Shown one piece after another: positions 2,877 to 16,964 of a stretch of 64,000 nt of DNA (position 1 is the first letter of the stretch; each line of letters opens with the position of its first letter). The stretch is from the IMG/VR virus record IMGVR_UViG_3300021373_003070; one strand, written 5' to 3'. A model generated the notes under the pieces. The model did no database searches. It saw only the letters and a program-made list of their open reading frames with translations, and was not told where the DNA came from. The position numbers and the translations under genes are program-made. Origin of the DNA: a virus.

Positions 2877-3067
2877 TGAATGATGGATTGACTAAGGTTG
2901 ATCAAAATACTTATATAAATAATTCAAGTACAGATTATCAAAAATTTAAGCAAGAACGCGAAAAACTAAAACAAGCAAGAGACATGTCGAATAGGATCAC
3001 TCAATTAGAAACACAGGTGACCAAGATTATGACCCTCATAGAAGAACTTAATGCTAGGATCAAATAA
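2876..3067 (+). CDS. Small coiled-coil protein
   Basis: 63 aa with a heptad-like C-terminus; TAATG overlaps on both sides. Confidence 0.7.
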   Translation: MNDGLTKVDQNTYINNSSTDYQKFKQEREKLKQARDMSNRITQLETQVTKIMTLIEELNARIK

Positions 3068-6000
3068 TGGCGCTACTTTCAGGTTTCGATGAATTAAATT
3101 CAGCAAATGCAACATTTAGTGATTGGTTAACAAAAACCAATGAGCTAATCTTGCTTATGCGAGGTGCAAATACAGCGCCAAGTATTACCTCAGTCATGAC
3201 GGCTAACTCGCTTCCCGGCGGTTCAATGACATTTGGAAATGCTACACTATTTGGCCAATTTACTGCTAATACGATGGTCGTATTGAACGATGGTGAAAAT
3301 GATGGATCAGACGATAATGTTTTCGCCAATGGTAACTTTGGTGGATTAAGAGGTGGTGTATGGAATAATGCTTCTAATACAATCACTGCTGATACATTAT
3401 ACATCGTTTCCAATACCACGTACACAGATGAATCAGTTGAGGTCTATGTCGATTCTACTTATGGTCTTATTGTTGAGCAAAATATTGAAGCGCGGCATGA
3501 TGTCTTATTTGTAGGTAACGGTGGTTCTAACACAAATCCAAAGATGCATTGGGAAGATGCAGACAATATTCTTAGTTTCAATAACAACGTAAGAGCTGTC
3601 TTTGGTAAGAACGCAGGCTCAGAAGTTGTAGGCGGTACAGGACAAGCAGAATTCTTATTTGTTGATGCAGATAATCGAATGTATGTCAACACGGAGAATA
3701 TGAACATCCGTGCAAATACTGACGTCAACTTTATCACAGACAACTTTGAGCTGAAGTCAGATATAGGCTCAGAACTTTATATCTCAGCTGACGTTGCAGA
3801 TAACAGCACAGTCAAGCTATACTATGAAGGTAACGAAAGACTCGCCACGAACACACATGGTATTGTAGTCACAGGCGATGCCATTGTACAAGACGATCTT
3901 GTTATGTTTGATGGTGGCCGAATCATGATGGGTAACACATATCCATATGACGGCACACAGGATATTGCATCATATAACTTTCAAATTTATACAGACGGCA
4001 CTGACGGTATTATTGTATCTGGTGACAAAGATCTCAATATCTTTGTTCATGAAGGATTCAATCTTACAAATGAACCCGGCACGATAAACTTCATCACAGC
4101 TAATAACGATGGCTCAAGCGAAGTTGTTCTTTATAATAACGGTACTGCTCGCCTCGAAACAACCGGTGCACAGGCTGGTGAAGTTCCGGGTGTAGAAATC
4201 TTTGGTGAAGCGAATACGACTACATTGCGTGTACGTCAAGATGCAAACTTTGACAACGATACTTTAAACTCGAACAGTGTTCATTGGGATGCAACAAACG
4301 AAGTATGGAATTACCGTGATTCAGTTAAAGCCACATTCGGTGATAGCGATGACTGGGAGATGTTCTATACTGCTGCAGGTCGTGCATACTCTAATACAGA
4401 TAATCAAGATATTCGAGCCAGAACTGATCTAAATGTTATTTCCAACATTGTGGAAATGAAATCAGAGACAGGCGGCGAATTGTATATCTCAGCAGATGTT
4501 GCTGACAATAGCACTGTCAAACTTTACTACGAAGGTAACGTAAGACTATCTACAAATACACATGGTATTGAAGTTGATGGCGATGTTGTAGTAAAAGATA
4601 ATACTGTCATCTTCGACAATAACAAGCTGTTGATGGGTGGCACATATCCATATACCGGCGGCGAAGCAATCGCCGATTATAATTTCCAAATTTACACTGA
4701 CGGAACCGATGGTATTATTGTTTCTGGTGATAAAGATCTAAACATCTTTGTACACGAAGGATTCAATCTTACTAACGAGCCCGGCACTGTTAGCTTTATT
4801 ACTGCTAATAATGACGGATCAAGTGAAGTTGTACTATACAATAATGGTACAGCAAGATTAGAAACGACTGGTTCACAAGTCGGTGAAGTGCCCGGCGTAG
4901 AGATTCATGGTGAAGCCAACACTGATACACTACGTGTTGAAGGCGATGTTCGCTTCGATGGTTCTACAGACGGTATAACAACAACACTCAATGCTAACAA
5001 CATCGAATGGACATCATTGTCAAATACAATGAACTTCGATGATAACACATATCTTGAGTTTGGTACATCTGGCGACTTCAAGATTCACCATGATGGATCT
5101 CACACATATATGCAAGACACTGCCGGCGTCGGTAATGTCTACTTAGATACAAATACCTTCATTGTTAGAAATGCAGCTGGCAACGAAAATCTAATTCGTG
5201 CGATTCAAGATGATGGCGTAACTCTTTACTTTAATAATAGTCAGCGATTAGATACTACAAACCTTGGTGTTGACATTGAAGGCGAAGCAAACACCGATAC
5301 ATTGCGTGTTCAAGCCAACGCAACGTTTGAGTCAGATGCAATTAGTCCAAACGAAGCTGCGTTAGAGTGGAATTCGGCATCGCGAGTACTTGATTGGAAT
5401 GATAATGCTCGAGCAAGATTTGGTAATGGTGTAGATCTACAGATCTGGCATAGTAGCGCAGATAATAGTTCATATATTGCAGAATCTGGTGCTGGTAATC
5501 TGAACATATCAGGTACTAACATCAACATCGAAGCTCAAGACGGTAGCAATTATATTACAGCAGTCGACGATGGTAGCGTTAGTATTTTCTTTGCCGGCGA
5601 CGGCGTCAGCGATAACGGTAATATTGCACGACTGACTACAACAGACATCGGTGTTGATATTGAAGGTGAGGCCAATACTGATACACTTCGAGTACAAGGC
5701 GACGTTGCAATTGAAGATGGTACTGGTACTGTAGAAGTTACATGGGATGCATCCAATAGCAGAATGAATTTTGTGGACGAAGCAAGATTACGTTTTGGTG
5801 ATAGTGCAGACCTACAAATATGGCACAGCGGTACAGCATCATGGATAGCAGATTCAGGAACAGGCAACCTATTCATCGAAGGTACAAACTTAGTACTAAG
5901 AGCTACCGATGATACACGTTATCTTGTAGGTACCGATGGAACTGGCGTAGAAATTTATTCACCTGACGATAGTGTTGCATTAACTGCAAATAACAATCAG

Positions 6001-8955
6001 ATTCACATCACCGATCTCGCTAATACAAATACATTGCGAGTACGTGGTACGTCATTGTTTGAGAATGATATCAGTATCGAAGGTTCTGATAGTAACGAAG
6101 CGCTAGATTGGGATAAGTCAGCGAATACATTAAACTTTAATGATGATAACTATGCTACATTCGGTACAAGTAGCGATCTACAGCTTTATCACGATGGCAC
6201 AAACTCGTTTATCAAAGAACAAGGTACTGGTCAACTAAACATTGATGGTAGTGTTGTAGCGATTCGTGATGTCAGCGATGGTACAACGATTGCCAAATTT
6301 ACCGATGGTGCTGGTGCTGATATTTCTTACAACGGCACAGTACGAATGTCAACAGATGACGGCGGTATTACTGTTACAGGTAATACAGTTGCTGATGGTT
6401 TTGTTGCAGGTGATAATGAGAAGTTACAACTCGGTAATGCTCAAGATTTAGAGCTGTATCATGACGCTTCTGATTCACGAATTGATAATAAAACCGGTAA
6501 TCTTGTAATTAGAAACGCTTCCAATGATGCTGACGTAATTATTCAAACAGATGATGGTTCAGGTTCCCAAGCAGTATATTTCCAAGCAGATGGTAGTACA
6601 GGATCAGTTAAACTTTTCCATTATGGTGCAACGAAATTAACAACAACTAGTATTGGTGTTGATCTTGAAGGCCAAGCAAACACAGATACACTACGAGTGC
6701 AATCTACCTCTGACTTCGAAGGTAGTATTAACATTCAAGGTTCTAATGATACTGATACTCTCACTTGGACCAAGTCATCCAATACTCTTAACTTCGACGA
6801 CAATAACTTTGCTACATTCGGCAATGATTCTGATCTTTCTATCTACCACGATGGAGATCATTCATTCATCTCCGATACCGGTACAGGCGCATTACGAGTA
6901 CTTTCAAACGACATTATCTTTAAAGATTCGGCGAATACTGAAACAATGGCGCGCTTTGTACAAAATGGTGCTGTTACACTCTACTTTGATAATTCACAGA
7001 AATTTATTACTACCAATACAGGTGCTACACTTACTGGCACATTAATTGCCGATGGTGTTACTGTTGGTGACAATGAGATTATTCAACTTGGTACAACCAT
7101 GCAGTTGTACAATGACGGCTCAACATCTTATATTAACGAAACTGGTAGCGGATCATTAACTGTACAAGCAAATAATCTTATTTTAGAAGATACAGGTGGC
7201 GATGATTTCGTTACAGGTGTAGCAGGTGGTACTGTTAGACTCTATTATGCTGGTGCATATAAGTTAGAAACAGATCTCGCAGGTGTAAATGTAAATGGTT
7301 CATTGGATGTATCATCGGCTCTAACAGTTGGTGGTGTTACTAGTCTCGAAAACGATATTGATATTCAAGGTTCTACGGGCGCAGACACTCTTACGTGGGA
7401 TAAGTCAGCCAACACATTAAACTTTGACGATAACAACTTTGCGACATTTGGTACCGGCGCTGACATGTCTTTGTATCACAATGGTACAAATTCATTTATT
7501 GAAAACACTACTGGTGAGTTGTTTGTAAAAGCAGATGGTCTCACATTACGAAGTACAACGAACGAAGATTATCTAACCGCTGATTTAGACGGTGGCGTTA
7601 CACTGTACTTCAATAATTCGGAGAAACTTGCAACCACTAATACAGGCGCAACACTTACAGGTACATTGATTGCCGACGGTGTTACAGTTGGTGATGACGA
7701 AATCATTCAGCTTGGTACAACCATGCAGCTGTACAATGATGGTGCTAACTCATACATTACCGAATCTGGTTCAGGCAATTTTAACTTACAGGCAAACAGT
7801 GTTGCATTAGAAAATACTGATGGTGGTAACTACTTCACCGGTGTAGCCAATGGCGCTGCTATCATGTATCATGCCGGCACAGCGCGTGTATCAACTACAT
7901 CATCTGGTGCAAGTATCACTGGAGCTCTTGGCGTAACGACAAATCTGACAGTAACAGGTTCAACATCACTCAATGGTACAGTCGATCTTGGTAATGCCGC
8001 TAGCGACAATATTGACTTCAATGGTCGCGTAAGAACTAGTATTGTACCAAACGCGAACAATACGCGTGATCTTGGTTCGTCCACCCTCGTATGGAATGAC
8101 ATCTATAGTGGCGGCGCATTTAGTGGAAATAATGGTACATTTACCGGCGACCTTACAGTTTCAGGCAATACGGCAATTACCGGTAACACTTCAGCATCAC
8201 ACTTTATTGGCAACGGTTCACAGCTTACTGATCTAAATGGCACCGCAATTACTACCGGCACTGTTGACGCTGCTAGAATTGATGCTGAGCTTACATCGAA
8301 TACGAGTGGTACAGCTGCTACTGCTACACAGCCGGCTGTTACCGACTCATCCACTGATACTGACTTTAGAGTAACCTTTGCATCTAATACCGGCCAATTC
8401 CGTGATTTGTATGCTGATTCTACATTCTTATATAATCCAGCTGACAATGCATTATATGTCGACAACTTAATTGTCAATACGGAGATTACTCTACCAGATA
8501 ATATTACAGCGCAAACAGTATCCGCTGTAGATTTCAGTGTATCCAATACGGCCACAATATTAAATCTTGAAGTGACCTCGCTTGAAGCGAACGGCGTGGC
8601 ATTTACCGGTACGGGTGGTGATGTTACAACAACAGCATCTACGATGATCGATAGCTTCCCAATTGAACAAACACGTGGATATAAGTATTTTGTACACGGT
8701 GAAGTCACTAACGACGATACAAAAGGATACGCTGTTGAAATCAACGTTATTACTACTGACACTGGCGCCGATACAAAGATTTTCTACACTCGATATGGTG
8801 AAGTTGAAAATGGTATGGGCACGGTAGAAGTTGTTCCAGAGCTAGCAAGTAATAACACGCACATTGATTTGATGGCGACATGTCCTGCAGCTACAGCTTC
8901 TGCAATTCACAGATTTAACGTACTTAAGATAGAAACTAGGGATAATGGTGTATAA
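3067..8955 (+). CDS. Long tail fibre / adhesin with internal repeats
   Basis: 1962 aa, rich in G/T/N/D. N-terminal TFSDWLTKTN anchor motif and many FGxxxDLxIYHDGxxSxI and GxVxLYxNxxxxLxTT repeats typical of marine phage fibres. Confidence 0.8.
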   Translation: MALLSGFDELNSANATFSDWLTKTNELILLMRGANTAPSITSVMTANSLPGGSMTFGNATLFGQFTANTMVVLNDGENDGSDDNVFANGNFGGLRGGVWNNASNTITADTLYIVSNTTYTDESVEVYVDSTYGLIVEQNIEARHDVLFVGNGGSNTNPKMHWEDADNILSFNNNVRAVFGKNAGSEVVGGTGQAEFLFVDADNRMYVNTENMNIRANTDVNFITDNFELKSDIGSELYISADVADNSTVKLYYEGNERLATNTHGIVVTGDAIVQDDLVMFDGGRIMMGNTYPYDGTQDIASYNFQIYTDGTDGIIVSGDKDLNIFVHEGFNLTNEPGTINFITANNDGSSEVVLYNNGTARLETTGAQAGEVPGVEIFGEANTTTLRVRQDANFDNDTLNSNSVHWDATNEVWNYRDSVKATFGDSDDWEMFYTAAGRAYSNTDNQDIRARTDLNVISNIVEMKSETGGELYISADVADNSTVKLYYEGNVRLSTNTHGIEVDGDVVVKDNTVIFDNNKLLMGGTYPYTGGEAIADYNFQIYTDGTDGIIVSGDKDLNIFVHEGFNLTNEPGTVSFITANNDGSSEVVLYNNGTARLETTGSQVGEVPGVEIHGEANTDTLRVEGDVRFDGSTDGITTTLNANNIEWTSLSNTMNFDDNTYLEFGTSGDFKIHHDGSHTYMQDTAGVGNVYLDTNTFIVRNAAGNENLIRAIQDDGVTLYFNNSQRLDTTNLGVDIEGEANTDTLRVQANATFESDAISPNEAALEWNSASRVLDWNDNARARFGNGVDLQIWHSSADNSSYIAESGAGNLNISGTNINIEAQDGSNYITAVDDGSVSIFFAGDGVSDNGNIARLTTTDIGVDIEGEANTDTLRVQGDVAIEDGTGTVEVTWDASNSRMNFVDEARLRFGDSADLQIWHSGTASWIADSGTGNLFIEGTNLVLRATDDTRYLVGTDGTGVEIYSPDDSVALTANNNQIHITDLANTNTLRVRGTSLFENDISIEGSDSNEALDWDKSANTLNFNDDNYATFGTSSDLQLYHDGTNSFIKEQGTGQLNIDGSVVAIRDVSDGTTIAKFTDGAGADISYNGTVRMSTDDGGITVTGNTVADGFVAGDNEKLQLGNAQDLELYHDASDSRIDNKTGNLVIRNASNDADVIIQTDDGSGSQAVYFQADGSTGSVKLFHYGATKLTTTSIGVDLEGQANTDTLRVQSTSDFEGSINIQGSNDTDTLTWTKSSNTLNFDDNNFATFGNDSDLSIYHDGDHSFISDTGTGALRVLSNDIIFKDSANTETMARFVQNGAVTLYFDNSQKFITTNTGATLTGTLIADGVTVGDNEIIQLGTTMQLYNDGSTSYINETGSGSLTVQANNLILEDTGGDDFVTGVAGGTVRLYYAGAYKLETDLAGVNVNGSLDVSSALTVGGVTSLENDIDIQGSTGADTLTWDKSANTLNFDDNNFATFGTGADMSLYHNGTNSFIENTTGELFVKADGLTLRSTTNEDYLTADLDGGVTLYFNNSEKLATTNTGATLTGTLIADGVTVGDDEIIQLGTTMQLYNDGANSYITESGSGNFNLQANSVALENTDGGNYFTGVANGAAIMYHAGTARVSTTSSGASITGALGVTTNLTVTGSTSLNGTVDLGNAASDNIDFNGRVRTSIVPNANNTRDLGSSTLVWNDIYSGGAFSGNNGTFTGDLTVSGNTAITGNTSASHFIGNGSQLTDLNGTAITTGTVDAARIDAELTSNTSGTAATATQPAVTDSSTDTDFRVTFASNTGQFRDLYADSTFLYNPADNALYVDNLIVNTEITLPDNITAQTVSAVDFSVSNTATILNLEVTSLEANGVAFTGTGGDVTTTASTMIDSFPIEQTRGYKYFVHGEVTNDDTKGYAVEINVITTDTGADTKIFYTRYGEVENGMGTVEVVPELASNNTHIDLMATCPAATASAIHRFNVLKIETRDNGV

Positions 8956-10544: not shown

Positions 10545-13466
10545 ATGCCAGTAGGTGGCGGTAAGGGTTTTATTGATAAAACCTGGGCACAAACATTTGA
10601 TGAAACACGATTCAAAGATGCTGCGTCAGGTACAACTGATGCAACTCCTATTTCTGTGCCTTATGGAAAGCAAGTAATTGAAATTACTGCAAGGGGTGGA
10701 GCCGCTAGCGCGCCAATACTAGATCCTGCATATTCAATTACAAAGAACGCTTATACAACGTCAAACATTACTTCGTATCCTTCGCGTACTTTCTTTAAGG
10801 ATGTATATACAACTCAGATCAATACCTCGTATCCAACAAGAACATTCTTTAAAGATTCATATACGTTATCTACAATATATCCAGCTAGGAATACTTTTGA
10901 GAATGCTTATACTACTGTAGCATATACGCAGTATCCATCGCGTGTGCAAAAGAATGCATATAATACTGTACAATTCACTGCATATCCTGCTGACGTTGCG
11001 AAGAATGCCTATACCACTCAGGTAAACACTGCTTATCCTGCTGACGTTCAAAAGAATGCTTATTCTACTGTAGCATATACACAATATCCAACCAGATTTA
11101 ATAAAGCCGCTTATAATACCGTACAGTATACGCAATATCCAATTAGATACGCTAAGTCAGCTTATACTACTGTAGCATATACGCAGTATCCACAGCGAAA
11201 CCAAAAAAATGCTTATACGACTGTAGCATATACGCAGTATCCTGCTCGTACTCAGAAAGCCGCATATAATACACAGGTCAATACGGCTTATGGTGCCGAC
11301 GTTCAAAAGAATGCTTATACGACTGTAGCATACACGCAATATCCTATTCGATATTCTAAGGCCGCATATACTACATCGACCATCACTAACTATCCTGCTC
11401 GTACATCAAAAGCAGCATATTCTACAGTAACTAATACTGCATACGGCGCTGACGTGGAAAAGAATGCATATTCTACGGTAACTAATACTGCATACGGCGC
11501 TGACGTGGAAAAGAATGCATATAATACTGTGCAGTATACACAATATCCAGCTGATGTAGCAAAGAATGCATATAACACCGTAGCATATACACAATATCCT
11601 GCACGATTTACTAAGGCTGCATACAATACATCGTCCACCACTAACTATCCCGCGCGGTTTAACAAGGCTGCATACAATACATCAGTCACCACTAATTATC
11701 CTGCACGGTTTAATAAAGCCGCGTATAACACATCAGCTACCACTAACTATCCTGCACGGTTTAATAAAGCTGCGTATAACACATCAGCCATTACTAACTA
11801 TCCTGCTGATGTTCAAAAGAATGCTTATTCTACTGTAACATATTTGTTCTACAACTCTGAAGTTCAGAAATTTTCATATTCGACATCTGTCGTAACGTCA
11901 TATCCAGCTCGTACTCAAAAAGCTGCTTACTCTTTCCAGCAATATCAACTAAGTTCGAGTAACCAAACTTATGTTCTGACAGGATTTGTTTCAGGACCAA
12001 CGCGTTGGCAAAAATCAGCATATAATGCGACTGTCACCACACAGTATCCAGCAAGATTTAATAAAGGTAGTTATAATTTAGCAGTAAATACAGATTATCC
12101 TGCACGGTTTAATAAGGCTGCATATTCTACAGTAACCAATACCGCATATGGTGCTGATGTAGCAAAGAATGCTTATTCTACAGTAGTCAATACTGCTTAT
12201 CCAGCAGCCGTAGCAAAGAATGCTTATTCTACTGTACAAACAACAGCATATGGTGCTGATGTAGCAAAGAATGCTTATTCTACAGTAGTCAATACCGCAT
12301 ATACTGCCGACCAAGAGAAAGCAGCTTATACTACTCAGGTAAACACTGCTTATCCTGCTCGATTTAATAAAAGTGCGTATACAACTCAGGTTAATACGGC
12401 TTATCCTGCACGGTTTAATAAAGCCGCGTATAACACATCAGCTACCACTAACTATCCTGCACGGTTTAATAAAGCTGCGTATAACACATCACAAACAACT
12501 AACTACCCAGAACGGTTCCAAAAAGCTGCTTATTCTACTGTACAAAATACGCAATATCCAGCTGATGTACAAAAGAATGCTTATACTACTCAGGTTAATA
12601 CTTCATATCCTATTCGATATAGTAAAGCTGCTTATAATACTGTACAATATACACAGTATCCACAGAGATTTGCAAAAGGAGCATACACCACTCAGGTAAA
12701 CACTGCTTATCCGCAGCGATTCCAAAAGTCAGCGTATACAACTCAGGTCAATACTTCATATCCTCAGCGTGTGCAGAAAAATGCATACACAACTCAGGTT
12801 AATACTGCATACGGTGCTGATGTACAAAAGAATGCCTATACTACACAGGTCAATACCTCATACCCAACAAGATTTAATAAAGCTGCTTATTCTACTGTAG
12901 CATACACACAATATCCAACCAGATTTAATAAAGCTGCTTATAATACACAGGTAAATACGGCATTTCCACAGAGATTTAATGCTGCATATACAACTCAGAT
13001 CAATACCTCGTATCCAACAAGATCATTCTTTAAAGATTCATATACATTATCTACGATATATCCTGCAAGAAATACTTTCGAGAATGCATATACAACAGTA
13101 GCATATACACAATATCCATCGCGTACATTCTTTGAGAATGCATATTCTACTATACAATATACACAATATCCATCTCGTATAACTAACTATCCGGATAGAG
13201 TTACAGCTGGTACTGCTGGAACCGATAGTGTTGTTTCATGGGTAACAGCAGACGGTTATTCTGTATCGTTTACTGCTGCCGGTGCACAACCAAATATCAC
13301 AAACTATGTAATTCGCACAGCTCAGACTTCAAACAGAAAGATATTTGATCCAACTAAAGTCGATGGTGTAGATGGAACACAACTTAATGTTTCCGTAGGT
13401 AACTCGCCAGCAGGTAACAATACAGCAGCTAATAGAGGGTTTATAAATATAAAGTACACTGGTTAA
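10545..13466 (+). CDS. Tyr/Thr-rich repeat fibre: predicted giant self-complementary beta-hairpin inserted in a glycine-rich-type domain
   Basis: 973 aa. 47 units of KxAYxTxxxTxYPxxxx lie between the N-half (EITARGGA) and C-half (AGTAGTDS..FTAAG..GFINIKY) of a small globular domain. Confidence 0.85.
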   Translation: MPVGGGKGFIDKTWAQTFDETRFKDAASGTTDATPISVPYGKQVIEITARGGAASAPILDPAYSITKNAYTTSNITSYPSRTFFKDVYTTQINTSYPTRTFFKDSYTLSTIYPARNTFENAYTTVAYTQYPSRVQKNAYNTVQFTAYPADVAKNAYTTQVNTAYPADVQKNAYSTVAYTQYPTRFNKAAYNTVQYTQYPIRYAKSAYTTVAYTQYPQRNQKNAYTTVAYTQYPARTQKAAYNTQVNTAYGADVQKNAYTTVAYTQYPIRYSKAAYTTSTITNYPARTSKAAYSTVTNTAYGADVEKNAYSTVTNTAYGADVEKNAYNTVQYTQYPADVAKNAYNTVAYTQYPARFTKAAYNTSSTTNYPARFNKAAYNTSVTTNYPARFNKAAYNTSATTNYPARFNKAAYNTSAITNYPADVQKNAYSTVTYLFYNSEVQKFSYSTSVVTSYPARTQKAAYSFQQYQLSSSNQTYVLTGFVSGPTRWQKSAYNATVTTQYPARFNKGSYNLAVNTDYPARFNKAAYSTVTNTAYGADVAKNAYSTVVNTAYPAAVAKNAYSTVQTTAYGADVAKNAYSTVVNTAYTADQEKAAYTTQVNTAYPARFNKSAYTTQVNTAYPARFNKAAYNTSATTNYPARFNKAAYNTSQTTNYPERFQKAAYSTVQNTQYPADVQKNAYTTQVNTSYPIRYSKAAYNTVQYTQYPQRFAKGAYTTQVNTAYPQRFQKSAYTTQVNTSYPQRVQKNAYTTQVNTAYGADVQKNAYTTQVNTSYPTRFNKAAYSTVAYTQYPTRFNKAAYNTQVNTAFPQRFNAAYTTQINTSYPTRSFFKDSYTLSTIYPARNTFENAYTTVAYTQYPSRTFFENAYSTIQYTQYPSRITNYPDRVTAGTAGTDSVVSWVTADGYSVSFTAAGAQPNITNYVIRTAQTSNRKIFDPTKVDGVDGTQLNVSVGNSPAGNNTAANRGFINIKYTG
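10743..13184 (+). repeat. 51-bp (17-aa) coding tandem repeat array: 23 units, a 31-aa turn unit and 23 units
   Basis: Parsed by hand from the translation: arm 1 = 10743-11918 (392 aa), turn = 11919-12011, arm 2 = 12012-13184 (391 aa). Confidence 0.95.
13442..13449 (+). promoter_or_regulatory. T4-type late promoter for the oxygenase cassette
   Basis: TATAAATA 40 nt before ATG 13489. Confidence 0.7.
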
Positions 13467-13488: not shown

Positions 13489-14049
13489 ATGTTATTAGCT
13501 CCATCCACGGAACTTTCTCGTTTCGTAATTGTCGATAATCTTGTTGACACCGTAGATAAAATACGATTCTTTGAGAAGATTATCGGTTTTCAACCTAGAG
13601 ATCCAGAAAGCGAATTTGCATGTGATTTAGGATATCTAGAATCAGACATGAATACAAATAAAATTGTGTATGATCCCTTTCATTCTCTTATCTCTACAAT
13701 AAATTATGAAGCTTTTTTGTATGATATAGAATCTCTTGAAAAATTCATGTACGCTCGACTTACTTCAACTGCTCAAGATCATATCAAACCTCATCGTGAA
13801 ATACGATTATCTGGCTATAGAAAACAAGATCGTAAGATTACGATGCTTAGCTGTCTATCAAATAATAACGAATATGAAGGTGGCGAATTAAAAATTGATA
13901 TCGATGGAACTCTGCAACCGCAAATTATAAATTTAAAGGCCGGCCAAACGGTATTCTTTGATTCACATGTTACATGGGGAATAGAACCAGTGACGAGTGG
14001 CGAAGCAAGATTTCTATTGAACAATGCATGGGGTAAATCACAACTATGA
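13489..14049 (+). CDS. 2OG-Fe(II) oxygenase-fold protein (PKHD/P4H-like), degenerate active site
   Basis: RKITM..L..YEGGEL..G..FFDS..EPVTSG pattern. HxE is present, but the distal His position holds Trp. Confidence 0.75.
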   Translation: MLLAPSTELSRFVIVDNLVDTVDKIRFFEKIIGFQPRDPESEFACDLGYLESDMNTNKIVYDPFHSLISTINYEAFLYDIESLEKFMYARLTSTAQDHIKPHREIRLSGYRKQDRKITMLSCLSNNNEYEGGELKIDIDGTLQPQIINLKAGQTVFFDSHVTWGIEPVTSGEARFLLNNAWGKSQL

Positions 14050-14756
14050 TTTTTAATAATGATCCCGGTCTAGAGTTTTATACATCAGAGCATTTATATG
14101 GCGCACTCATTGAACCATCTAGAATGCAAAAGCATGTGCCAGAATGGTTTAAGAAAATACCTGTTACAAAAAATATTCGTGATCAAGGTGGGTTCCCATT
14201 ATTTACGGCTAAAAAATGTTTACCTATGCTAGATGCTATGACTCTTGGTTGGGTGATTCCATTACAAAGTGATGTACATGTAATTACAAATGACGATTGT
14301 TCTATAATTCAGGCTGCAGGAAGAGAAGGCAATCAAATACAAGCCGTACAAGGCCACGCGTGGGATCAAATTGCATCTGAAAAATGGCCGGGCTTTAAAC
14401 AAGATCCGTTGAAGTTTATTAATCATTGGCGAATCAAAACTAAACCCGGCTGGTCATGTTTATTTCAAGCAATGCCAAATTCAGTGCAATCTGATTTTAC
14501 ATGTTTGAGTGGTGTTGTTGATACCGACACATATATGAATACTATTAATTTTCCAGCTGTTTGGAATACGCCAAATGCAGATATAACTTTAAAAGCAGGT
14601 ACGCCATTAGTGCAAGTTATTCCATTCAAAAGAAATAAGATGGATGCTAAAATCAGAACAGCTACAGATCGCGAAGAAAGAAAAAGAGATATACTTGAAA
14701 AGGCGCAAGGAACAAGAACGGGCGTATACACTCAAGAATTAAGAGAAGTTAGATAA
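14046..14756 (+). CDS. DUF6065-like protein
   Basis: PEWFK..KKCLPMLDAMTLGW..WRIKTKPGWS..GVVDTD..NFP..GTPLVQVIPFKR. Confidence 0.65.
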   Translation: MIFNNDPGLEFYTSEHLYGALIEPSRMQKHVPEWFKKIPVTKNIRDQGGFPLFTAKKCLPMLDAMTLGWVIPLQSDVHVITNDDCSIIQAAGREGNQIQAVQGHAWDQIASEKWPGFKQDPLKFINHWRIKTKPGWSCLFQAMPNSVQSDFTCLSGVVDTDTYMNTINFPAVWNTPNADITLKAGTPLVQVIPFKRNKMDAKIRTATDREERKRDILEKAQGTRTGVYTQELREVR

Positions 14757-15535
14757 TGTGGAAAAAGAATCATAATGAAGAGTTCGTCTTTAATGATATG
14801 TGGGGTTCTGTTTGGGGAACATGGCCGATTGTAGCAGCAAATAAATTTAAAGCGCCGTATGAAAGTTTTCAAAGAGAAAAATATGGGCGACCACATCTTG
14901 TAGATTGTCCCGGCATGTACGACTATAAAAATCAAGGCTGGTTAATGCTAGCTTGGTGTGAAATTGAAGTGCATTGTGATGGAAAAAATACCATGATGTA
15001 TTATGGCCATCGAGATAAAGGTGAATGGCCAACCCCTGTTAATCAAGAATGTCCATATAAGCTTGATCACAATAAACACATCGACGAGCAATGGATAAAA
15101 AGTGCATCTGGCATGTCAGAAAAAATAGCCCATGGTATCGCCGAGCATCGAGACAGCAATCCTACACCAATGCATATTAGTACGCCATGGGCAATAATTA
15201 ATAAAGGCTGTTCGCTAATGGTTCAGCCTCCTGTATATCATAGTAATATTTCAGAAGACTTTTATGTATATCCCGGCATAGTTGATTATGAGAATGGATT
15301 TTCTACAATGAATTTTATATTCTCATGTAAAAAAGAAGGTAAGTTTACAATTAAACCGGGTACTCCTATTTTACATATGATACCTATGATTAAAAGAGAT
15401 TGGAAGGCATACTATACACACGATAGTTTAGGTGAAACAAAATTCTATACTGGTGCGCTGTCTAATGCTAAACAATTTTATAGAAAAATGGTACATAGAA
15501 GAAACAGATTTACGATTGATCGGTGGGATAAATGA
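14756..15535 (+). CDS. DUF6065-like protein (paralogue of the preceding gene)
   Basis: CPGMYDY..GW..PW..PGIVD..NF..PGTPILHMIP aligns with the preceding ORF. Confidence 0.6.
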   Translation: MWKKNHNEEFVFNDMWGSVWGTWPIVAANKFKAPYESFQREKYGRPHLVDCPGMYDYKNQGWLMLAWCEIEVHCDGKNTMMYYGHRDKGEWPTPVNQECPYKLDHNKHIDEQWIKSASGMSEKIAHGIAEHRDSNPTPMHISTPWAIINKGCSLMVQPPVYHSNISEDFYVYPGIVDYENGFSTMNFIFSCKKEGKFTIKPGTPILHMIPMIKRDWKAYYTHDSLGETKFYTGALSNAKQFYRKMVHRRNRFTIDRWDK

Positions 15536-16347
15536 TAAACACAGAAGCTCTAGAAGAAATTAAAATTGCTACAAGCTTTAATGATAGACCGTATCTAATT
15601 AAAAACTTTACTTCATTTCCTGACCAATTTTTAAATCATATGTATTTTTATGAATGTTTCGGTGAATGTAATTATTATGATTGTCATGTATTGCCTATTA
15701 TGGAATGGGGTGATACAGCGTCGTCACTAAAGATATCATTTAATGATCTTGCTTATAAAAATAAAAAGAAAGACATAGATGAGAATGGCGTGCAGAATTA
15801 TAAGTCGCGACAAAGAATGGAAGGGATGGGTAGGAAACGTCCATTAGATTATTTAAAAGATAAGAACACGCTTAGAATTTATAATTATGAAAAATATAAT
15901 AATCTATCGCGTGATATGAGTAATGCTTTATTAGACACCTTTACACTCGATGTAGATATCTTTGGGGTGTGGCCGGCGTTTGTAACACCAGAAAAAGGTG
16001 CTGCGCATGCGACTTTCATAAAAGAGAATGAAATATCTGGTCATCCTCGAGGTGAAAATTATAATTCATTTTACTTACAAACAGTAGGCACATCAGAGTT
16101 TGTCATATACAAAAATCGTGTCAGTGGTTTAGTTGATAAGAATCTACCATTTGACTGGACAAAAGAAAAACGAGTAATATTTTTTGATAATCTTGAAGTC
16201 GAAGAAACCATAGAAGTAAACCCAGGCGACTTACTATACATACCTGAAAGAAAAATGTTTTATGAAAAAGGTGTGGAAGAAAGAATGCATATTAATTTTC
16301 CTCTAATATACAAAGGACCTCAGTCGAGTTATAATCCAACATTATGA
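15532..16347 (+). CDS. JmjC/cupin-like protein, degenerate active site
   Basis: NSFYLQTVGTSEF and VNPGDLLYIP are JmjC/cupin-4 motifs. The HxD and distal His positions read RGE and F. Confidence 0.65.
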   Translation: MINTEALEEIKIATSFNDRPYLIKNFTSFPDQFLNHMYFYECFGECNYYDCHVLPIMEWGDTASSLKISFNDLAYKNKKKDIDENGVQNYKSRQRMEGMGRKRPLDYLKDKNTLRIYNYEKYNNLSRDMSNALLDTFTLDVDIFGVWPAFVTPEKGAAHATFIKENEISGHPRGENYNSFYLQTVGTSEFVIYKNRVSGLVDKNLPFDWTKEKRVIFFDNLEVEETIEVNPGDLLYIPERKMFYEKGVEERMHINFPLIYKGPQSSYNPTL

Positions 16348-16964
16348 TAGAAGTAGAAGACATTTTCATTGAAAGTATTTTTAAAGAAGTATATGACGAT
16401 ATAAATCATCAAGAAATACACGACTATATAAACTTTCTTATGAGTAGAGAAGAGAAAGGTGTAGTCATTTCTAATAAAGGTGGGTGGCAATATCATGTTC
16501 AACGCGATGAGTGTGAAGCTATAGATTATTTGAATGATAGACTGCATGCCACGGCCCATCAAATTTTATATGAGTATTATAGCTTTGATATGAAGAATAT
16601 GGTCAGCGCTGGTATATGGATTAATGTAAATAATTCCGGTGATTATAACGTAAATCATAATCACGCCGGCTCCGTGCTATCTAGTTGTTATTATTTACAG
16701 GCGCCTGAACCTTCAGCCCATATTGAATTTGAACCAAATGATCAATTGTCTAGAACAATATTGAGAAACGAACTCGAAAAAGGTGGATCTGAATTTTTAG
16801 GAGATGATAATCCTCGTATTAGAATGGGCGCGGGCAAAGCACCACAAGAACGGGAAGCATACTTTTTTACAGGACATCTGTCACATCGAGTTGATATAAA
16901 TAATTCAGTCGAGCCTAGAATTTCACTCGCGGCTAATTTCTGTTCGAGCGCAGCTCGCTCTTAG
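16344..16964 (+). CDS. Putative 2OG-Fe(II) oxygenase (TIGR02466-like), intact ligands
   Basis: SNKGGWQ..WINVN..DYNVNHNH..LSSCYY..HRV..N..RISLAAN. Confidence 0.8.
   Translation: MIEVEDIFIESIFKEVYDDINHQEIHDYINFLMSREEKGVVISNKGGWQYHVQRDECEAIDYLNDRLHATAHQILYEYYSFDMKNMVSAGIWINVNNSGDYNVNHNHAGSVLSSCYYLQAPEPSAHIEFEPNDQLSRTILRNELEKGGSEFLGDDNPRIRMGAGKAPQEREAYFFTGHLSHRVDINNSVEPRISLAANFCSSAARS

Follow-up and report, generated by a model that had tools for sequence, protein, structure and literature searches.

A repetitive fibre-like gene with two arms

The DNA analyzed here, which we call the window, is a viral stretch of 64,000 nucleotides (IMG/VR record IMGVR_UViG_3300021373_003070), and its subject is an open reading frame (ORF) at 10545-13466 on the plus strand, encoding a fibre-like protein of 973 amino acids (aa). 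The window represents an uncultured T4-like myovirus: its major head protein finds its best match, at 64% identity, in Stenotrophomonas phage DLP_6, followed by Sinorhizobium, Methylophilales and Pelagibacter phages, and it also encodes portal, large terminase and tail-sheath-related proteins together with several tail-fibre-like proteins. The fibre-like protein has no His and no Cys at all, and is abundant in Thr, Ala, Tyr and Asn.

Most of the chain is a repeat region that can be parsed into 47 units, each about 17 residues long (exactly 17 aa in 39 cases), with the consensus A-Y-x-T-x-x-x-T-x-Y-P/G-x-R/D-x-x-K-x. It is preceded by an N-terminal segment (10545..10748, plus strand; aa 1-68), which alignments mark as the most conserved part of the family described below, the conserved residues being K7, F9, D11, T13, W14 and A15, then P39, Y40 and G41, and then G51 and G52. 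At the other end follows a C-terminal segment (13191..13463, plus strand; aa 883-973), conserved (...GFINIKY-G) according to the alignments and, on the AlphaFold2 (AF2) model of a minimal homologue, a putative part of one base sandwich with the N-terminal segment. Between them the units are laid out as 23, one and 23. Arm 1 (units 1-23; 10749..11924, plus strand; aa 69-460) was delimited by unit parsing and register scans, and arm 2 (units 25-47; 12018..13190, plus strand; aa 492-882) by parsing, shuffles and a type-free test. Unit 24 (11925..12017, plus strand; aa 461-491) is irregular and rich in aromatic and hydrophobic residues; its centre, residue 476, falls on the midpoint of the repeat region (475.5), and the centres of homologues are likewise irregular and variable. 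It would represent the turn and distal tip of the protein.

Mirror covariation between the arms

An earlier note, made from the letters of this DNA alone, had split each unit into a five-residue "strand" and a "linker", and had claimed that the two arms complement each other when strand i is set against strand 48-i and linker i against linker 47-i. Its counts are reproduced on the parsed units. The strand types of arm 1, in order, are o Q L Y Y Q Y Y Y Y Q Y S N N Y Y S S S S o o, and those of arm 2, read backwards, complement them as Y Y L Q Q Y Q Q Q Q Y Q N S S Q Q N N N N o o. Thus all 12 Q(V/I)NT(A/S) strands lie opposite a V(A/Q)(Y/F)T(Q/A) strand, each of the seven S-x-(T/I)-TN strands lies opposite a V-x-(N/T)-T(A/Q) strand, and TLSTI faces TLSTI. 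Among the linkers, exactly one partner carries an aromatic residue at position 4 in 20/20 pairs from L4 to L23, and the 13 acidic linkers are all opposite an Arg linker and never opposite another acid.

This complementarity is confined to a single register. At i<->48-i (c=48) the strand rules are obeyed by 20/23 pairs, whereas no other mirror register exceeds 10/23 and no parallel shift exceeds 14/41, and when units were shuffled within an arm the observed mutual information between types was reached in 0 of 200,000 trials. The one-aromatic rule for linkers holds for 20/23 pairs at i<->47-i (c=47) and for at most 14/22 elsewhere, a result matched in 99 of 200,000 shuffles, while the acid-Arg rule taken alone is weak (p about 0.05). 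Because the unit types of the earlier note were defined after the pairs had been seen, we also summed mutual information over raw residues across registers, dispensing with type definitions altogether. In this type-free test the strands reach z=8.9 at c=48 and no more than 2.4 at any other register, and the linkers reach z=4.7 at c=47 and no more than 1.5 elsewhere. The linkers add evidence that is partly independent of the strands: in the zone of Q and Y strands, linker aromaticity is not predicted by strand type (6/6 and 6/7), yet all nine linker pairs still obey the one-aromatic rule (p=0.012).

Finer correlations are also visible. Y-type strands with Gln at position 6 are opposite QVNTA in 4/4 cases, and VAYTQ lies opposite 5/5 of the Q-x-NTS strands; positions inside a unit are tightly linked, so that these are mere hints as to which residues meet across the arms. 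The covarying strand positions are both odd and even, and would therefore occupy both faces of the putative sheet.

At the level of DNA the mirror order has no evident mechanism, because the gene contains no inverted repeats and the blocks shared between the arms are self-complementary direct copies. A DNA palindrome as the cause of this order is ruled out by the absence of inverted 14-mers. Unit 20 (11721-11771) is 100% identical in DNA to unit 33 (12426-12476), and 96% identity is seen both between units 2 and 44 (10803-10853 versus 12984-13034) and between units 7 and 42 (11058-11108 versus 12885-12935). These identities indicate recent copying or gene conversion between the arms, each time between two units that share a type and face the complementary one. 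Similarly, the terminal block Q-L-Y at units 2-4 and 44-46 is a direct copy (84-90% DNA identity) that is its own mirror complement. Copying of units between the arms and a self-complementary Q-L-Y block are what a pairing constraint would allow.

Homologues and the base domain

An exhaustive HMMER search recovered a handful of true homologues, in which Y-P-x-R repeats are flanked by the shared N- and C-terminal segments. Scans of viral and metagenome contigs with the N-terminal alignment extended these to 37 loci (here L001 to L037) encoding about 25 distinct proteins of 179-782 aa, all from metagenomes; a profile search added only P0022-P0024. Word-based searches with the whole protein and with aa 1-68 returned nothing in the 535-1703 aa range, and a cultured-phage collection gave no match by whole-protein tblastn, region blastn or N-domain tblastn. 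No Pfam family matched the window protein or four homologues, the sole PHROGs match of the ORF is a 31-residue stretch to phrog_6071, of unknown function and not a fibre family, and the family profile run against all PDB sequences found only chance matches (E >=0.05), to designed propellers. Judged by these searches, the proteins constitute an unannotated family of probable phage fibre-like proteins, with neither a Pfam family nor a solved structure nor a cultured phage to its name.

The mirror arrangement recurs in this family with different unit types. In L001 (782 aa) an arm of 15-residue units, an irregular centre and an arm of 14-residue units follow one another, and its two strand types, QNQT(N/D) and SV(I/V)TN, are unlike in 17/18 pairs at the centre-symmetric register, with at most 10/16 at other registers (77 of 200,000 shuffles). 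Its four PSRQVK linkers lie opposite exactly its four PARN(Q/K)A linkers, and in the type-free scan its strands have a single peak at c=42 (z=7.0) and its linkers one at c=41 (z=5.0). In L011 (624 aa) it is like units that pair, so that the complementary pairing described in the earlier note stands for the window protein, where unlike units pair, and does not extend to this homologue. The linker lengths of L011 form a palindrome that holds in 13/13 pairs, a result matched in 9 of 2000 shuffles when maximised over registers; its rare SN-type strands are at mirrored positions (3 and 7 versus 25 and 21), and the type-free scan again gives one peak each, at c=28 for strands (z=4.4) and at c=27 for linkers (z=5.0). 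P0001 has linker lengths of 5 5 6 5 6 [6] 6 5 6 5 5 and two 12-aa strands at mirrored positions. In the quite different L033, with units of 18/19 residues, KKPPKKPPK is opposite PPKKPPKKP, a periodic pattern and hence weaker evidence, and in L036 aromatic and non-aromatic units are partly complementary. The linker-length palindrome test was uninformative for L005, L007-L009, L016-L019 and P0004-P0006, whose units are parsed poorly by the regular expression.

Two further regularities accompany this recurrence. In three proteins the register of the linkers is one below that of the strands (48/47 in the window protein, 42/41 in L001 and 28/27 in L011), as arises when antiparallel arms lie side by side and place S(i), L(i), S(i+1) against S(c-i), L(c-1-i), S(c-1-i). 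The arms also contain equal numbers of units across sizes, 23/23 in the window protein and 20/20 in L001 despite its unequal unit lengths. The checks that the earlier note had proposed, namely register shifts, shuffles and covariation in homologues, have thus all come out as it predicted, with one mirror register (20/23 against at most 10/23) that recurs in relatives.

A pattern of this kind might be an artefact, produced either by unit types chosen post hoc or by a misassembled repeat array. The types were indeed set once the pairs had been seen, and the sequences derive from short-read metagenome assemblies, of which L029 and L034 look like possible collapses. However, the signals of the type-free test (z=8.9 and z=4.7) are each confined to one register, a mirror pattern would be blurred by misassembly rather than made by it, and identical proteins were obtained from separate IMG/VR and metagenome contigs (L001=L002=L010, L004=L012, L006=L027), all of which makes an artefact extremely improbable in our estimate. 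It is also conceivable that the arms never touch, the mirror pattern being due either to a different constraint (for instance, a symmetric third partner lined by both arms) or to chance in the history of duplication. Contact between the arms is after all deduced from sequence patterns, and units have been exchanged between them in DNA (20 and 33 at 100%; 2/44 and 7/42 at 96%). Direct duplication, however, results in translational and not mirror order, three proteins of differing alphabets show the pattern independently, in every case with the linker offset of -1, and shuffling attained the observed value in none of 200,000 attempts; we therefore consider non-touching arms highly improbable.

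Some members of the family deserve separate mention. L029 (457-996 of a 1144-bp contig) encodes a 179-aa protein that corresponds to L025/L009 minus the whole interior, the join falling inside a unit (QPAYYVQTNYPARY) found near both ends; it may be either a natural minimal hairpin or an assembly collapse. L033 (54-2063) and L034 (1953-3740) are near-identical, except that L034 is without four units (one K-K-P-P period, 74 aa) in arm 2 only, leaving its arms unequal, and it may be either a real variant that tolerates mismatch or a collapse of the repeat during assembly. The central tip of L033 (aa ~299-352) is a non-repetitive segment of 54 aa with four Cys, a residue absent from the window protein. 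The tips appear to differ strongly among relatives, as would be expected of a region in contact with the host.

The AF2 model of L029, which comprises both termini and about three units and was computed with a 31-sequence family alignment, is all-beta, with a predicted local distance difference test score (pLDDT) of 77.9 and a predicted template modelling score (pTM) of 0.61. In its units a two-residue P-A turn joins a 7-residue strand (Y-x-V-x-T-x-Y) to a 5-residue one (R-x-Y-x-Q). The five-residue "strands" and "linkers" of the earlier note may accordingly not be what their names say, the modelled unit being a 7-residue strand, a tight Y-P turn and a 5-residue strand. The first 13 residues of the model are poorly ordered, and the base contains only short helical turns. 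An exhaustive structural alignment (VIA) of this model retrieved single jelly-roll sandwich domains covering model residues ~14-179, with both terminal segments included. Matches with Z of 6-7.2 were to the baseplate protein of a mycobacteriophage (Z 7.2), to nucleoplasmins and to the end domain of a Bdellovibrio fibre (Z 6.0); others were to a cyanophage Pam3 fibre and to TNF, BAFF, APRIL and C1q (Z 5.0-5.6). All of these matches are weak and under the caution line of the tool at Z=8. Foldseek with the L029 base model gave nothing at E <=0.001 (best E above 0.01), and BFVD and ESM Atlas fold searches with it yielded just weak jelly-roll-like or unnamed matches, none significant. The aligned ranges and the pTM of this minimal homologue, from which the single base domain is deduced, weakly suggest that the N- and C-terminal segments are strands of one beta-sandwich base, and the weak fold matches would be consistent with a chain that returns to its start. 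Although the first ~15 residues of the window protein (aa 1-13 correspond to 10545-10583) and of its homologues (MP-GGGKGF-D-TWA) are among the most conserved in the family, their pLDDT in the model is <50. This stretch may act as a docking peptide toward some other protein of the virion, perhaps the product of one of two conserved genes upstream, of 384 aa or 135 aa.

A putative fold-back fibre

The central position of unit 24, the equal unit counts of the arms and the ranges of the base model are most simply read as an excursion from the base, a turn at unit 24 and a return. We accordingly propose, with a probability of roughly 0.7, that this is a fibre-like virion protein that folds back on itself, with its arms in contact unit by unit and its distal tip encoded in the middle of the gene. 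Under this proposal aa 1-68 and aa 883-973 would together make one beta-sandwich base, from which 23 units would run outward to the aromatic-rich unit 24 as the distal tip, and 23 units would run back. Unit i would then lie against unit 48-i and linker i against linker 47-i, each unit being two short beta strands, A-Y-x-T-x-x-x-T-x-Y and R/D-x-x-K-x, joined by a Y-P/G turn. Partner types would fit by size and polarity: Q-V-N with V-A-Y, S-x-T-T-N with V-x-N-T-A, and an aromatic residue with Val or a polar residue at linker position 4, to which Arg-versus-Asp charge may add. With the types in irregular order along an arm, one register alone would satisfy all pairs. The conserved N-terminus would dock on the virion, and the variable, aromatic-rich centre would be the tip, presumably with a role in binding. 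The unequal unit lengths of L001 point to a fixed rise per unit with spare residues accommodated in turns, rather than to one fully extended ribbon.

As far as sequences go, the mirror covariation is present at one register, in two layers, and repeatedly within the family; from it we infer the physical contact of the arms, the chemistry of that contact, whether salt bridges or knob-into-hole packing, the binding function of the tip and a role in setting the register. The irregular order itself may either have been selected to fix the register or be frozen history under a pairing constraint.

Gene context counts in favor of a fibre-like role, in that the neighbours are tail-fibre-like and their order is kept. 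Upstream in the window (3067-8955, plus strand) lies a 1962-aa protein with multiple tail-fibre PHROG matches, found at the same position in related loci at 36-64% identity. Every locus long enough to include flanks preserves the order of a large fibre-like protein, a 135-aa protein, a 384-aa protein, the putative fold-back fibre gene, and a 2OG-Fe(II) oxygenase with related genes. In the window this downstream cassette (13489-16964, plus strand) opens with a 2OG-Fe(II) oxygenase (186 aa, PF13640), followed by two phrog_7084 proteins, a protein of 271 aa and another 2OG-Fe(II) oxygenase. Wherever a locus extends far enough downstream, the first gene of the cassette is present (L001, L004-L014, L016-L017, L019, L021, L025-L028, L030-L031, L034-L037). 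One possibility, which is conjectural, is that the oxygenases hydroxylate the Pro/Asn/Lys-rich repeats post-translationally.

Several points weigh against a chain that folds back in this way. In the models, the fold matches of the putative base domain are weak (Z at most 7.2, Foldseek E above 0.01), and contacts between the N- and C-terminal segments are deduced only from pTM and the ranges aligned. L029, the minimal member, lies on a contig of 1.1 kb and could be a collapse produced during assembly. If the four-unit difference between L033 and L034 in one arm only is real, strictly matched arms are not obligatory. Every sequence is a metagenomic assembly of repetitive DNA. AF2 run on the whole window protein as a single sequence gave a pLDDT of 27 and almost no secondary structure, and its ESM Atlas model (pLDDT 0.47) had no usable look-alikes. 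Finally, the covariation apparently involves both putative sheet faces, which a simple two-layer monomeric sandwich does not explain.

The last point bears on the alternative that pairing takes place between chains, either in an antiparallel arrangement or in a trimer in which arm 1 packs on the arm 2 of a neighbour, so that unit i meets unit 48-i of another molecule. An antiparallel homo-oligomer predicts mirror covariation equally well, the covariation of both putative strand faces suggests more than one arm-arm interface, and the weak base-domain matches include trimeric TNF/C1q-like and phage fibre-knob domains. Further, T4 gp37 offers a known case of a trimer that builds a needle of six antiparallel strands (PMC7291167). 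Nevertheless, an irregular unit exactly at the midpoint and base-model ranges that cover both termini favor a turn within the chain, and a purely antiparallel dimer would place attachment domains at both ends, for which reasons we think pairing between chains unlikely. A trimer of hairpins is in any case compatible with a chain folding back, and adds to it; speculatively, the both-face covariation hints at such an assembly with alternating arms, or at some other form with more than one arm-arm interface, resembling the T4 gp37 needle (PMC7291167).

Beyond the fold-back fibre itself, the earlier note had read the arms as a programmable pairing code. What stands of this interpretation is the unique mirror register relating the two halves; its cross-strand Arg-Asp salt bridges are no more than a possibility, given the weakness of the acid-Arg rule by itself. 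We put forward only tentatively, as a possibility at somewhat short of even odds, that this is a natural and evolvable pairing code for beta structure, in which a small alphabet of units recognises partners across antiparallel arms and irregular order sets a single folding register, as in a nucleic-acid stem. The window protein would then employ two orthogonal unlike pairs, each used in both orientations, and the alphabets would differ by member: Q/Y plus S/N, QNQ/SVI, K/P, and like-with-like by length.

Relation to known systems

In a limited literature search we found no description of a long beta-repeat protein with discrete unit types that pair across mirror arms by fixed rules, their alphabets varying among relatives. 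Heterospecific pairing rules are well worked out for coiled coils, and we know of no natural beta-repeat counterpart to them. A phage fibre that folds back is of a known kind; the chances that the pairing code as such represents a new principle are considerable. Fibre biology, amyloid research and protein design all face the problem of what keeps long repetitive beta proteins from slipping in register, and three proteins with different alphabets, the same mirror geometry and two partly independent layers offer a ready covariation data set. A probable host-contact tip encoded mid-gene rather than C-terminally would bear on host-range determinants in uncultured T4-like phages. Were the pairing code true, the units would be transferable modules for designing long, register-specific beta fibres.

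The protein belongs to none of the gp37, SMC or HET-s families, each of which resembles it in part. Another comparison is with the triple beta-spiral shafts of adenovirus and reovirus, whose repeats of 15-17 residues each place two short strands around a conserved Pro/Gly turn, and which form parallel trimers, their repeats in translational register, leading from an N-terminal attachment to a C-terminal knob. Two-strand/turn repeats of similar length in a viral fibre would be common to both, but the triple beta-spiral fold gives no reason for mirror covariation or for a base formed from two termini, and no match to it emerged from the fold or sequence searches.

In SMC/Rad50 proteins the regions at the N and C termini meet in one globular head, and the intervening sequence folds back as an antiparallel arm with a special apex (PMC4255302). 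Their two halves must match in register, as those of the window protein would have to, which is an analogy of topology only: the SMC arms are alpha-helical heptad coiled coils in ATPases, whereas the present family is all-beta in the model, with 14-19-residue units bearing a Y-P turn, has no ATPase, and would be a phage structural module. The HET-s prion domain is a beta-solenoid with two stacked pseudo-repeats of complementary charge, in which three salt bridges form per monomer and favourable charge combinations are conserved (PMC4055769). Its two 21-residue repeats stack in parallel in the amyloid, and the salt bridges are dispensable for basic activity (PMC4055769). Repetitive beta structure and, perhaps, charge complementarity between repeats would liken it to the window protein; it differs in that mirrored arms and a set of unit types are lacking, and the two proteins are not homologous.

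In the receptor-binding tip of T4 gp37 (the needle domain, PDB 2XGF) each chain of the trimer runs to the tip and then returns. The trimer builds a needle of six antiparallel strands (PMC7291167), which is held by seven iron ions bound to His residues (PMC6957217). Unlike gp37, the window protein has neither any His nor an H-x-H motif, lacks sequence similarity to it, possesses 47 regular units in place of a short needle, and displays discrete unit types with pairing rules, of which none has been described for gp37. What the two would share is the antiparallel course out to the tip and back, to which mirror covariation and the ranges of the base model point in the window protein.

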